64,000 nucleotides of DNA from Escherichia coli (GTDB lineage: Bacteria > Pseudomonadota > Gammaproteobacteria > Enterobacterales > Enterobacteriaceae): the NCBI RefSeq assembly GCF_041248615.1, contig NZ_CP158426.1; one strand, given 5' to 3'. Position 1 is the stretch's first letter. Every line of letters begins with the position of its first letter. A model generated the notes under the pieces. The model was given only the letters and a program-made list of their open reading frames with translations, made no database searches and was not told where the DNA came from. Position numbers and translations under genes: made by a program. Below are positions 1-7,490 of this stretch, piece after piece.

Positions 1-142
1 CTATATCTTCCCAGCCTTCTGCACCCGAAATAACGGCACAAATAGTCAACAGTAGAATATCCGATAATTTATGTTCCACTTTCCAGGCTTGTCTGTAATC
101 GGGGATAATAGAAATATGTCCCATCAATTTTTTAAGTTCCAT
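1..142 (-). CDS. H-repeat-associated (ISAs1-family) transposase, N-terminal 47 codons; gene runs off the window start
   Basis: Reverse-complement translation from the ATG at 140-142 gives [47 protein letters not shown], matching the H-rpt/YhhI-type N-terminus as I recall it; RBS-like AGGAG sits just upstream at 145-149 (plus-strand ctcct). Confidence 0.7.
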
Positions 143-291
143 TTTGTTCTCCTTAATTATGTAAGGAGTATTTGATCATGTATACGCAATAAAAAACAGC
201 TTCAGGTAATGAGGAATATCTCAATTGTTAAACATAAAATGCGAATTGTCTAGTACAAAAAAGCAGCGTTACGTGATCTTTCCGTGGATCG

Positions 292-413
292 TCAAATTGT
301 TCGAGAGAAAATACCAACATGATGGATTTTACTGTAAAAGTAATGTCGTAGTTTAAAAACTCATCATCCGGTAAAGCCTTGTGGGGCGTGGGCTTTCATA
401 CTTTTACCCTGAT
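292..413. repeat. Conserved ~120-bp segment upstream of H-rpt transposase (copy A); paired with 7031..7153
   Basis: Direct alignment by eye: tcaaattg...caacatgatgg(a/g)ttttac...aaaagtaatgtcg...tttaaaaa(c/t)tcatcat...gtggggcg(t/c)gggctttcat...ccctgat, roughly 85 percent identical between the two copies. Confidence 0.6.
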
Positions 414-727
414 GTCTGCTATACGCCGGACACCCTTTACGTAGCATTCGGAATTCACCCGTAAATTTATCACGGCGGTATCACGAAACCTCCGGTTCTG
501 ATGCCGCTTAGGACTAACGACACGTCAACACAGGTTCGGGTTTATTCATTTCACTGTATCTCATATAATCTGAGCACTCCCCCTGCGCTCGCTACTATGA
601 CTCTTTACCACAGCAACCGGGGTTGTTTGGGATCGGCTTTCAACAGCAGATCCCGGTGGCTATTGCAAGTAAGTCTACTTTCCACATCAGTGTTACTGAC
701 ACAGAAAATAATGAGTTATGATCCTTG

Positions 728-1213
728 TCATATTTTTAATATAGCCCCATGAGCTATAGGATCAAAACCTTCTAACCATGAGGTGTTTTTATCGAATAAT
801 GCACCTGTTATATTTATATCGCCATATCTATCACATAATAAATTAGCGCCACATAAGTCAGCACCAGAAAAATTTGAATCTTTAACGTCTGCATTGCAAA
901 AGGTTGAATTAGTTAATATAGCACCCTCAAAGTTTGCACCTATTGACCTTGAATTACTAAAGTCACTTCCAGTGAAATCTGAGTTATTAAGAATAGCGTT
1001 CATCAGAGCCGCATTGCGAAAGACAGCATTTCTAGTTGATGTATGTTGAATCATTACATTTCTTAAATGGGAATTTTCAAATTTCGCCCCATCAAGACAA
1101 TAACCATTGAGGATGGCACGATGTAGATCCATCCCGCTAAAATCATATCCAGCAAGAGTGGTACTATCTATATCAAGAAATTTATTGGTTATTAAAAACG
1201 CGATTCTTATCAT
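728..1213 (-). CDS. Pentapeptide-repeat protein (161 aa), putative cognate immunity protein of the Rhs C-terminal toxin (ydcD-like position)
   Basis: ORF track; tandem 5-residue repeats ([50 protein letters not shown]); start codon overlaps the rhs stop as ATGA at 1210-1213; AT-rich like the Rhs tip. Confidence 0.8.
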
Positions 1214-5421: not shown

Positions 5422-5842
5422 GGTTTATTCCTTAAATTATTTATGGTTTTATTCTGAGTGCAATCCATACTGATTCATAACCAGTGAATAAGATTTCCCC
5501 GAATAATCTATATAAATTAGCGAAGTCCTCTTCACTAATTAACCGTAAAATCCCGTACCAATGAAATATAAAAATAACCACCCACACAAATTTATTGCAA
5601 ATATTATTTATTATTGTATATACATCATTCACTGAACGTTCTCAAACTGCATACCTTAGAACCATCAATTAAAGCCACAACAAAAAAAATCGATTACTTT
5701 ATGTCGCATGACAAATATGAATTACATATTAATCAACCTTAAAAACAATCATCTCTTATAATTAACAGCATACCATGAGAAACACAAAATCAATTTACCA
5801 TGCATACCAGGAGCATAATTAACCTCTCACCGCAGGGCGAAA

Positions 5843-6979
5843 TCATGAAGGCCCGCAGCCAGCAAGGATTAGAGAAAGGTATTCATTCTTACGTCCTGCC
5901 CGCTTTTGCTTGCGTTTAATACCCGCTTTAAAGCTATTCTCTGCGGTCAGTAAATTCATCGCGATATGTCGACAAACTGCCAGATTTTCTCCCGCTTCTC
6001 CACGAACAATCTGGCATTCATCTTCCCGCATCCCCATATCAAGTCGCCAGTGCAGTTGATTTTCTACCGACCAGTGTGCTCGTGTTGCTTCCAGGAGTTC
6101 TTTCGCCGTAAGCGTCACCGAACTTATGTAGTAGCGAAGAATACACTTCTCTGATTTCACCGCTGTTTCTCCTTCCTGTCTGCTCGCCAGCACTATTCCT
6201 ATCGTGCTCAGCTCTGACCATTCATAAGCTAAATCACCCAGAGCGGTTAAATCATGGCTCACAATGCAGCATCGTGTATCTTCCCGTCCATGCCCTTTTT
6301 CCTGCGTGCTGTAACTGTCATACCTCTCACCCAGCCACATTGTCGGCGAGTACCCGTTATCAAACGCCTCCGCTAATTTTCCCTGATTTCCTTTCAGCGC
6401 CAGCAGGTAACCGGCTTTCTTTTTCAGAATTTCACGGGCGATTATATGCTGGCAACCCATTGCATCCAGCGTGACCAGACACCCTTTTAATTCCAGCAAC
6501 TGGAGCCGTTCCGGGATCGCCGTTATCTCATTCGATTTTGCCCCTGTTTTCACCTGCCCCAAAACCAGACGATTTTCTGCGCTAAAAGCACTGACCCTAT
6601 GGATCACGGCATTACGTTTCGATTTATCGTAAGTACCCCGTAATGACTTACCATCAATCGCCACAACAGAGCCTTCAGACAACGTGTGACAGTCCTTCAT
6701 CTACTGGATAAAAAGGGGCTGTAATTGTTTTGCTGAAATCATTCCCATCACTCGGGCAATCGTGTGATGGGAGGGGGTGCCATTTTCAAAATCACCATAC
6801 AGGCGTAACCATTCCAGATGCTCCTCACCAAAATCAGCAATTTCTTCCCATCCTTCAGCGCCACCGATAATGGCGGTGATCGTCAGAAAAAGGATATCCG
6901 CCAGGCTGTAACTGGTTTTCCAGGACTGGCGATAATCGTGAATAATTGAAATTTGATCCAAAAGGCTTAGTCCGTTCAT
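5843..6979 (-). pseudogene. H-repeat-associated (ISAs1-family) transposase interrupted by an in-frame TAG stop (92 aa + stop + 285 aa = 378 codons)
   Basis: ORFs 6701..6979 and 5843..6700 are in the same frame; plus-strand cta at 6701-6703 is an amber codon between ...LFIQ and MKDCHTL..., where H-rpt homologs as I recall them have Trp (FINWMRDCH). Confidence 0.8.
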
Positions 6980-7030
6980 GGTGTGCTATCCATCAAAAAG
7001 AAAGGATAAGATCACACTGAAATAAGATGG

Positions 7031-7153
7031 TCAAATTGATCGAAAAAAAAGATCAACATGATGGGTTTTACGATAAAAGTAATGTCGCGATTTAAAAATT
7101 CATCATTCACCAAAGTCTTGTGGGGCGCGGGCTTTCATGCTTTTTCCCTGATA
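7031..7153. repeat. Conserved ~120-bp segment upstream of H-rpt transposase (copy B); paired with 292..413
   Basis: See 292..413. Confidence 0.6.
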
Positions 7154-7490
7154 CGCTACCGCTCTGCCCTGATAACATGATCTGCACGGCGCTATCATAT
7201 CGACATATTTCTCTACATGCGAAAGGATGTTTTATTTTCGGATTATATTAAATTGATATTTCATATAAAAAACGAGATTACATAAATCATATAAATAATT
7301 GTACCAACTTTAATTACCATTCATAGCAAACAAATGGATGTCCAGTTAACTACGCCAGTGATTTATTAACATTAATCTCCGGCATTATTGTTAAATAATG
7401 GCATTCCTTTTTAGTATTTCTTGTAACGTTGGTATCGGACATACAGCATCAGCAATCGCACTGATATTCGCGGCATTATCTTGAAACCAT

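Follow-up and report, generated by a model that had tools for sequence, protein, structure and literature searches.

An rhsE locus of the Escherichia coli ST38 lineage and its relatives, in which an rhs gene of full length and a presumed immunity gene lie among H-repeat relics that were probably passengers

Rhs loci of Escherichia coli and the H-repeats that accompany them have been on record since the early 1990s. The H-rpt element of Hill and colleagues is reportedly about 1.3 kb long, with a 378-amino-acid frame called ORF-H, and is said never to have been observed to transpose. This classical H-repeat, named ISEc1 by the NCBI Prokaryotic Genome Annotation Pipeline (PGAP) and with ends that we read directly in strain K-12, begins with CAGGGAAAGATCA ~135 nucleotides (nt) 5′ of the ATG and ends ...CTTGCCCTG; its stop codon falls within the right inverted repeat. 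At the RhsB, RhsC, and RhsE loci of K-12, every H-repeat lies downstream of rhs, and the last of these loci has the order yncG-yncH-rhsE′(truncated)-ydcD-yncI-ydcC-pptA. Here, we describe the rhsE locus in a 64,000-nt stretch of E. coli contig NZ_CP158426.1 (the window), in which positions 1 to 7160 hold an intact rhs gene and its presumed immunity gene. The pair is bounded on the yncG side by a complete-length insertion sequence (IS) of the ISAs1 family, which we call type B, and on the pptA side by a truncated ISEc1, a stub (B′) from the 5′ end of another type B element, and a fragment of a group II intron. We consider it probable that these are separate, old relics trimmed by adjacent deletions, that the H-repeats traveled as passengers, and that the amber allele carried by type B is null. 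The haplotype is a normal one for an Rhs locus: an intact toxin-immunity pair amid decayed mobile-element relics.

Window positions 1 to 8200 match the chromosome of E. coli NRZ14408 (NZ_LT599825) at 100% identity. The annotated gene order in that record is narI, yddE, nhoA, yddH, pptA, sulfatase, GGDEF protein, ISAs1 pseudogene, pentapeptide-repeat protein, RHS core protein, second ISAs1 pseudogene, yncG (frameshifted), and ansP. Positions 1 to 7160 are therefore the rhsE locus, between yncG and pptA, as a sequence-only reading of the window had supposed, in the form carried by the sequence type 38 (ST38) lineage and its relatives. Our population set comprised 5,426 complete E. coli genomes, supplemented by scans of 72,556 plasmids and of species-representative genomes. 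The full stretch was present in 139 of the E. coli genomes, and the arrangement, premature stop codon included, is fixed in about 140 of them; the haplotype appears now to be inherited vertically. Three carriers can be tied to ST38 itself, one through its record name (“strain ST38”) and two, 28Eco12 and 266917_2, through published typing (PMC6963479). The yncG-pptA interval corresponds to “rhs locus 6” of Jackson et al. 2009 (PMC2935791).

The K-12 RhsE locus occupies the same chromosomal position and shares with the window an orthologous ISEc1 by pptA (91.5% identity), an rhs core that is ~81% identical, and a stack of H-repeat relics 3′ of the toxin and immunity genes. The differences are nonetheless extensive. 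The K-12 rhsE gene is 5′ truncated, whereas rhs is full length here; its yncG side has yncH and no H-repeat, where the window has type B; and a third H-repeat type (yncI) stands where the ST38-type locus has B′ and the intron fragment. The toxin tip and immunity gene of K-12 are unrelated to those described here. In the ST38-type locus, the 3′ half of ISEc1 is gone, and genes for an alkyl/aryl-sulfatase and a GGDEF-domain protein separate the remnant from pptA (4397 to 7517 of the NZ_LT599825 locus, left of the window); K-12 has neither gene there, and its intact ydcC adjoins pptA.

Translation and Pfam matches place H-rpt/ISAs1 transposase genes on both sides of the rhs-immunity pair in the same orientation, and translation together with PGAP annotation puts them at 1 to 142 (partial) and 5843 to 6979 (full), the coordinates first given for them. 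All of the genes and element parts treated below, from 1 to 7150, are on the minus strand. The full reading frame lies within the 1,318-bp type B element (5833 to 7150), the ends of which were set against five intact relatives with full ends and a copy from Tolumonas. By this comparison, the right inverted repeat starts at 5833 and the left one ends at 7150, with 20 of 26 positions matching. When the internal stop is read as Trp, the protein has the domains DDE_Tnp_1_assoc (PF13808, residues 8 to 94; E = 1e-28) and DDE_Tnp_1 (PF01609, residues 102 to 343; E = 5.6e-22). Type B thus shows the architecture of the ISAs1 family, in which these two domains are encoded by one frame in ~1.2 to 1.4 kb bounded by inverted repeats. 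It falls outside ISEc1, from which it differs with 66 to 69% DNA identity and ~50% protein identity; the full-copy protein is 49 to 50% identical to YdcC and YhhI of K-12, and the N termini of the left and right transposases agree at 28 of 47 residues, so that the two proteins are clearly diverged, as had been noted. Like H-rpt/ISEc1, type B is ~1.3 kb long with one 378-codon frame, inverted repeats starting CAGGG, a stop codon in the right inverted repeat, and no target-site duplication. It is nevertheless a separate IS species, single copy and confined to one lineage. By these comparisons, the right copy is an unnamed ISAs1-family insertion sequence distinct from ISEc1.

The nearest intact relatives that we found, at 76 to 83% protein identity, are on metagenome contigs (L007 to L012) and in a Tolumonas metagenome-assembled genome (L016). 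They share with type B the inverted repeats (CAGGGCAAAAGCATGAAAGCCCGC) and the layout of the leader; however, their frames are open, while in E. coli the frame carries an amber codon and the copy lacks a duplication. In the species-representative genomes, the only close relative was that of Tolumonas (83%), and no rhs homology was detected beside it. The plasmids, scanned as a possible vector, gave only partial matches to type B, none above ~67 to 75% identity. Within E. coli, 145 independent complete genomes carry the 1,318-bp element with an identity of 99% or more (100.0% for most matches listed), nearly always as one copy per genome. Type B is missing from the IS inventory published for an ST38 genome (PMC6963479).

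The partial gene at 1 to 142 is the start, 47 codons long, of a transposase pseudogene from an H-repeat of ISEc1 type (“type A”), identified by translation, DNA identity, and PGAP annotation. It runs past the left edge of the window; in NZ_LT599825, PGAP annotates it as a 551-nt remnant with a frameshift and a 3′ truncation. Its identity to K-12 ydcC is 91.5% over 672 nt of DNA. The leader and left inverted repeat (143 to 286) were delimited by alignment to the 5′ ends of K-12 ydcC and yhhI and of ydcC in strain N96; the terminus, at 273 to 286, has the minus-strand sequence CACGGAAAGATCAC, in which the canonical CAGGGAAAGATCA has degenerated. Given the ydcC identity and an alignable, slightly degenerate left inverted repeat, the left copy is ISEc1, the orthologue of K-12 ydcC with its 3′ half gone. 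The sequence-only reading had taken the two transposase genes for diverged copies of one element. They belong instead to two insertion sequences, each with its own terminal inverted repeats, and so are largely what would speak against a single element, namely, unrelated insertions with their own boundaries.

B′ (287 to 411) is the orphan 5′ end of a second type B H-repeat, recognized by its 83% identity to 7026 to 7150. It consists of the left inverted repeat, beginning with the family sequence CAGGGTAAAAGTATGAAAGCCC, plus 125 nt of leader; it stops 46 nt short of the expected ATG and abuts the ISEc1 terminus exactly. Among the E. coli genomes, B′ was detected only in the same 144 that have the region upstream of rhs. 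Together with its counterpart it makes up a direct repeat of 127 nt (287 to 413 and 7026 to 7152; 83% identity), close to the segments of ~120 bp and ~85% identity first reported at 292 to 413 and 7031 to 7153. That repeat is real, but the description of it as a segment preceding each element does not hold: positions 7026 to 7150 are the left inverted repeat and leader of type B itself, while the left-hand segment is a third relic, outside the ISEc1 end and between ISEc1 and the intron fragment. Since B and B′ are 83% identical to each other and each is only 63 to 73% identical to the other relatives sampled, they belong to one sub-lineage but are not recent copies of each other.

Next to B′ lies an internal fragment of a group II intron, from the domain I region (412 to 659). 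Rfam model RF01999 matches 552 to 660 on the minus strand (score, 48 bits; gathering score, 36; E = 1.7e-7), and the 248-nt fragment has ~84% identity to the 5′ portion of the complete introns with ltrA that strains N96 and CX12 carry. The first ~70 nt and the 3′ ~1.5 kb are gone, and the fragment is cut exactly at the terminus of B′. We had considered 412 to 659 as conserved backbone of the locus, given the 84% identity to N96 and CX12, and dropped this view when the Rfam match and a three-way alignment identified it as intron sequence; because this is mobile intron DNA, the argument that B′ had entered ancestral DNA was dropped as well. From 143 to 727 the relics are thus stacked in the order ISEc1 5′ half, B′ stub, intron fragment, a 68-bp spacer, and the end of the immunity gene.

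In N96 (2451 to 4325) and CX12 (about 6670 to 9330), which represent two different rhsE haplotypes, ISEc1/ydcC carries a full, co-oriented ltrA intron at a point 15 nt into its left inverted repeat. This suggests that the H-repeat end is the homing site of the ltrA group II intron. Group II introns in E. coli H-repeats were reportedly described in 1994.

The 378-codon frame of type B contains a single in-frame stop, an amber codon (TAG, plus-strand cta) at 6701 to 6703. Translation and an alignment of 27 homologues (49 to 83% identity) place it at Trp93, which is kept in all 27, as the sequence-only reading had supposed. Since this residue is invariant, the stop arose most simply by one G-to-A change (TGG to TAG). 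A sequencing or assembly error at 6702, which would leave the transposase intact, was a possibility raised at the outset. The element, TAG included, is 100.0% identical in most of the matches listed among the 145 independent assemblies, the internal stop is flagged by PGAP in the reference record (“ISAs1 family transposase, internal stop”), and truncated downstream products of 273 to 279 amino acids appear as “transposase” in public protein sets (P0008 and P0009); the probability of an error is therefore practically nil. The TAG is a fixed allele and the only frame-breaking lesion in the type B transposase. In that sense the earlier description of a one-mutation pseudogene stands; it does not extend to the rest of the protein, which departs from the alignment at four further positions where at least 26 of 27 homologues agree (L158R, D190G, V195L, and E234D). 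Intact homologues show 0 to 5 such departures, with a median of 1, and the four substitutions would point to relaxed constraint, although not conclusively. The window contains no tRNA genes and so no local suppressor, and the amber allele is probably a true null. With the TAG at Trp93 and a single copy fixed in place, type B does not show the intact transposase of an element able to transpose.

The placement of type B upstream of rhs had been called unusual. It is so in comparison with K-12, although not at this border in general. A second haplotype of the rhsE locus, found in N96 and APEC E19035, carries a PAAR-VgrG-M35 peptidase cargo, and directly upstream of its PAAR gene lies a 148-bp ISEc1 5′ end, preceded by the same chromosomal flank plus five bases (TTAAT). 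The 148 bp comprise the left inverted repeat, the leader, a ribosome-binding site, and ATGGAACTT, the first three codons. This junction is present in 687 of the 5,426 genomes, with the ISEc1 end ~140 nt 5′ of the PAAR gene; it lies at 8842 to 9000 in L003 (N96) and at 8841 to 9000 in L004, and the equivalent flank in our window starts at 7151. From there to 7392 the window holds the chromosomal flank between the left end of type B and yncG, as judged from its junctions compared with K-12, N96, and APEC E19035. Position 7151 is a breakpoint common to three unrelated haplotypes; the K-12 flank matches up to the same nucleotide and then diverges. The PAAR-VgrG-M35 haplotype thus resembles ours in its yncG-side flank and breakpoint (within 5 bp), in having an H-repeat left end upstream of and co-oriented with the effectors, and in having ISEc1 on the pptA side. 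It differs in that its border carries the 148-bp ISEc1 5′ end rather than a full type B, in its unrelated cargo, and in its complete group II intron within the ISEc1 left inverted repeat. An ISEc1 leader match under a “PAAR” annotation in an O103:H2 strain was set aside, being the usual downstream rhs truncation and not an upstream H-repeat.

At this border, both H-repeat ends point into unrelated cargo (Rhs in one case and PAAR-VgrG-M35 in the other), and neither has a target-site duplication. The shared breakpoint is the only feature of the locus that is not explained by ordinary decay. Site-specific targeting or end-mediated capture of adjacent cargo could produce such a recurrence, and the H-repeat 5′ region might then also serve as an effector promoter. 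Based on the two H-repeat species at one breakpoint, ISAs1-family left ends may define, and perhaps even create, the border that interchangeable cassettes of type VI effectors have on the yncG side, but we regard this as a long shot.

A related proposal is that the upstream H-repeat has been co-opted, with its 5′ end acting as a promoter or regulatory region and the amber codon possibly splitting the transposase into a 92-amino-acid DNA-binding fragment and a 285-amino-acid catalytic fragment that may restart at the adjacent Met94. Type B is upstream of rhs and co-oriented with it, with no gene between them, much as the 687 genomes have an ISEc1 5′ end with its ribosome-binding site and three codons ~140 nt upstream of the PAAR gene; moreover, the TAG coincides exactly with the border of the two Pfam domains (8 to 94 and 102 to 343) and is followed directly by an ATG (TAG ATG, 6698 to 6703). 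However, Met94 is conserved across the family in the 27-homologue alignment, so that the ATG is not new, and the substitutions at invariant positions suggest decay over maintenance; all copies are nearly identical, so that they give no measure of selection. Scans for consensus promoters and terminators gave counts at chance level (10 against 7.8 expected and 7 against 7.0) and so no support for a regulatory role of the type B element. Co-option is accordingly very improbable in our view.

Definition of the element ends and of any target-site duplications, a check proposed along with the sequence-only reading, gave 5833 and 7150 for type B, 273 to 286 for the ISEc1 end, and no duplication at type B, which lies between GGTAGCGTAT and CGGTGAGAGG. 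Perfect duplications of 10 bp (AGGGAAGCAT, TGAACCACCT, and CGCATAAACC) do border three of its relatives, L010, L012, and L016. This is not so for the resident ISEc1 copies examined: K-12 ydcC and yhhI and the ISEc1 copy of the O103:H2 strain also lack them, and the IS table of an ST38 genome gives non-matching flanks for ISEc1 (PMC6963479). Because resident ISEc1 copies also lack duplications, the missing duplication is generic to Rhs-associated H-repeats and not specific to this rhs module; it is compatible with an old rearrangement but identifies none.

The sequence-only reading had suggested that the whole module was mobilized or rearranged by recombination between H-repeat copies. In this alternative, B and B′ would be the remains of a composite transposon or portable homology through which the rhs-immunity module was imported or rearranged, and several observations that favor it weigh against separate insertions. 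B and B′ flank the rhs-immunity pair in direct orientation and are nearest relatives among those sampled. Type B, the 411-bp region upstream of rhs, the toxin tip and immunity gene, and B′ are confined to the same ~140 genomes, where they are found together; a direct repeat co-occurring with its cargo is exactly what a composite origin would predict. Type B lacks the 10-bp duplication that its relatives make, which means that at least one flank has changed since insertion and that some rearrangement involved B. Among the 5,426 E. coli genomes, none has the 5422-to-5832 flank without the element, so that no empty site for type B was found, and K-12, N96, and APEC E19035 have only the yncG-side flank in common with the type B locus; simple insertion of B is thus not demonstrated. 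Finally, H-repeat ends stand at the upstream border of another cassette type too, and independent random insertions do not explain why, in two unrelated cassette haplotypes, two ISAs1 species should end at the same chromosomal nucleotide (within 5 bp).

Against mobilization, B and B′ have diverged by 17%, too much for them to be recent copies or to undergo homologous recombination efficiently. As a 125-bp stub in a group II intron fragment, B′ is not a functional second end; its right inverted repeat, the outer end that a composite transposon needs, is gone, so that a duplication flanking a B-cargo-B′ unit cannot be shown or even defined. A second location of the unit was sought in the E. coli genomes, the plasmids, and the species-representative genomes, and none was found; the search for B/B′ recombinants or excised forms was likewise negative, and the only deletion variant that we examined was made by IS1. 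We therefore hold that an old rearrangement touched B and that mobilization of the module through H-repeat recombination is not supported; there is no positive evidence for it, and we judge it unlikely.

That deletion variant is strain U1 (L033, 5210 to 7222), in which an IS1 copy takes the place of rhs, the immunity gene, and most of type B, leaving 222 bp of its 5′ end. We had considered U1 as a B/B′ recombinant and rejected it in favor of an IS1-mediated deletion. It is a case of natural loss of the module through IS1 and not through H-repeats.

We favor instead a history in which separate, old insertions would have entered a mobile-element graveyard of the kind typical of Rhs loci, followed by deletions that ended exactly at element termini. 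Junctions exact to the terminus would be expected where one element has inserted into another already present or where a transposase has deleted adjacent DNA, and those seen here presumably arose in one of these ways. The H-repeats would thus have been passengers of the rhs module and not its vehicle.

The rhs gene itself (1210 to 5421) is intact and encodes 1,403 amino acids, as given by the open reading frame listing, Pfam matches, and the position of the core motif. The protein matches DUF6531, has 13 significant RHS_repeat matches and an RHS core (PF03527, residues 1157 to 1191), and carries a DPLGL motif at residue 1256 (nt 1642 to 1656), beyond which lies a C-terminal toxin core of ~100 amino acids (nt 1213 to 1518). 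It therefore has the features of an Rhs polymorphic toxin, i.e., a shell, the core signature, a PxxxxDPxGL-type motif, and an adjoining immunity gene. Residues 1 to 1200 have no Pfam match to a PAAR domain, and the annotated neighborhood of NZ_LT599825 has no vgrG adjoining rhs. We take the N terminus to be like that of the K-12 Rhs proteins. Upstream, 411 bp of AT-rich, non-coding DNA (5422 to 5832; 30% GC) reach from the rhs start to the right end of type B; even with sensitive blastn, this region was found only in the same 144 of the 5,426 genomes and is lineage specific.

The last ~100 Rhs residues have no match in Pfam, NCBIfam, or PDB sequences. They belong to a toxin-domain family with at least 329 cluster representatives; in the proteins listed, the match falls at or close to the C terminus. 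Three of the matches, viewed in context, lie in an Rhs protein, in a protein of SpvB/TcdB type, and in a short C-terminal fragment that stands alone. Residues Q25, S29, G59, H61, and R62 (a GNHR motif) are invariant; in this Rhs protein, H61 and R62 of the domain alignment correspond to H1362 and R1363. The domain looks ParB/sulfiredoxin-like; full membership of that class would call for a ParB/sulfiredoxin (Srx) fold with a conserved Gly-x-x-Arg-type motif equivalent to DGHHR. The 161-amino-acid pentapeptide-repeat protein encoded at 728 to 1213 (Pfam Pentapeptide and Pentapeptide_4) is the presumed immunity protein; its gene overlaps the rhs stop codon by 4 nt, and a pentapeptide-repeat protein of ~160 amino acids also follows the homologous toxin domain in two distant homologues (L030 and L031). 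ParB-fold toxins (Tox-ParB/ParBL1) are an established class of polymorphic toxins, for which Zhang et al. 2012 list other immunity families and never mention pentapeptide repeats (PMC3482391). In comparison, the E. coli domain goes unrecognized by Pfam and NCBIfam, and its pentapeptide partner is outside the listed families. A preprint on Tse6/Tsi6a of Stenotrophomonas rhizophila describes a PAAR-Rhs toxin with an immunity protein resembling a pentapeptide-repeat antitoxin (bioRxiv 10.64898/2026.07.13.738213); it resembles the E. coli pair in joining an Rhs toxin to such an immunity protein.

Fragments of the immunity gene (95% identical) also occur in an orphan toxin-immunity array downstream of rhsA in many other strains (for example, PCN033; L014, 7920 to 8285), and this array is a second place for them in genomes of the ST38-type lineage. 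On the other side of the locus, yncG (7391 to 7997) is a frameshifted pseudogene in the ST38-type lineage. It is ~91% identical to K-12 yncG, compared with ~95.5 to 96.7% for the wider flanks, and this low identity suggests that the haplotype linked to the variable region is old and divergent. Farther along, transposase genes of IS200C and IS1414 are annotated in the identical genome between pqqU and mcbR (window positions about 13461 to 15293); they are unrelated to the H-repeats.

ST38 is a carbapenemase-carrying clone that has spread globally. For its lineage, the present dissection of rhsE gives the exact ends of every relic in the haplotype, and it recognizes in E. coli an unnamed ISAs1-family element. 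The established picture of Rhs loci and their H-repeats is unchanged by this locus. The hotspot that this locus forms for type VI effector cassettes repeatedly has H-repeat ends at one of its borders; if mechanistic, this recurrence would bear on how such cassettes are swapped, but for the present it stands as a coincidence. Given the spread of ST38, the toxin-immunity pair is of more practical interest.

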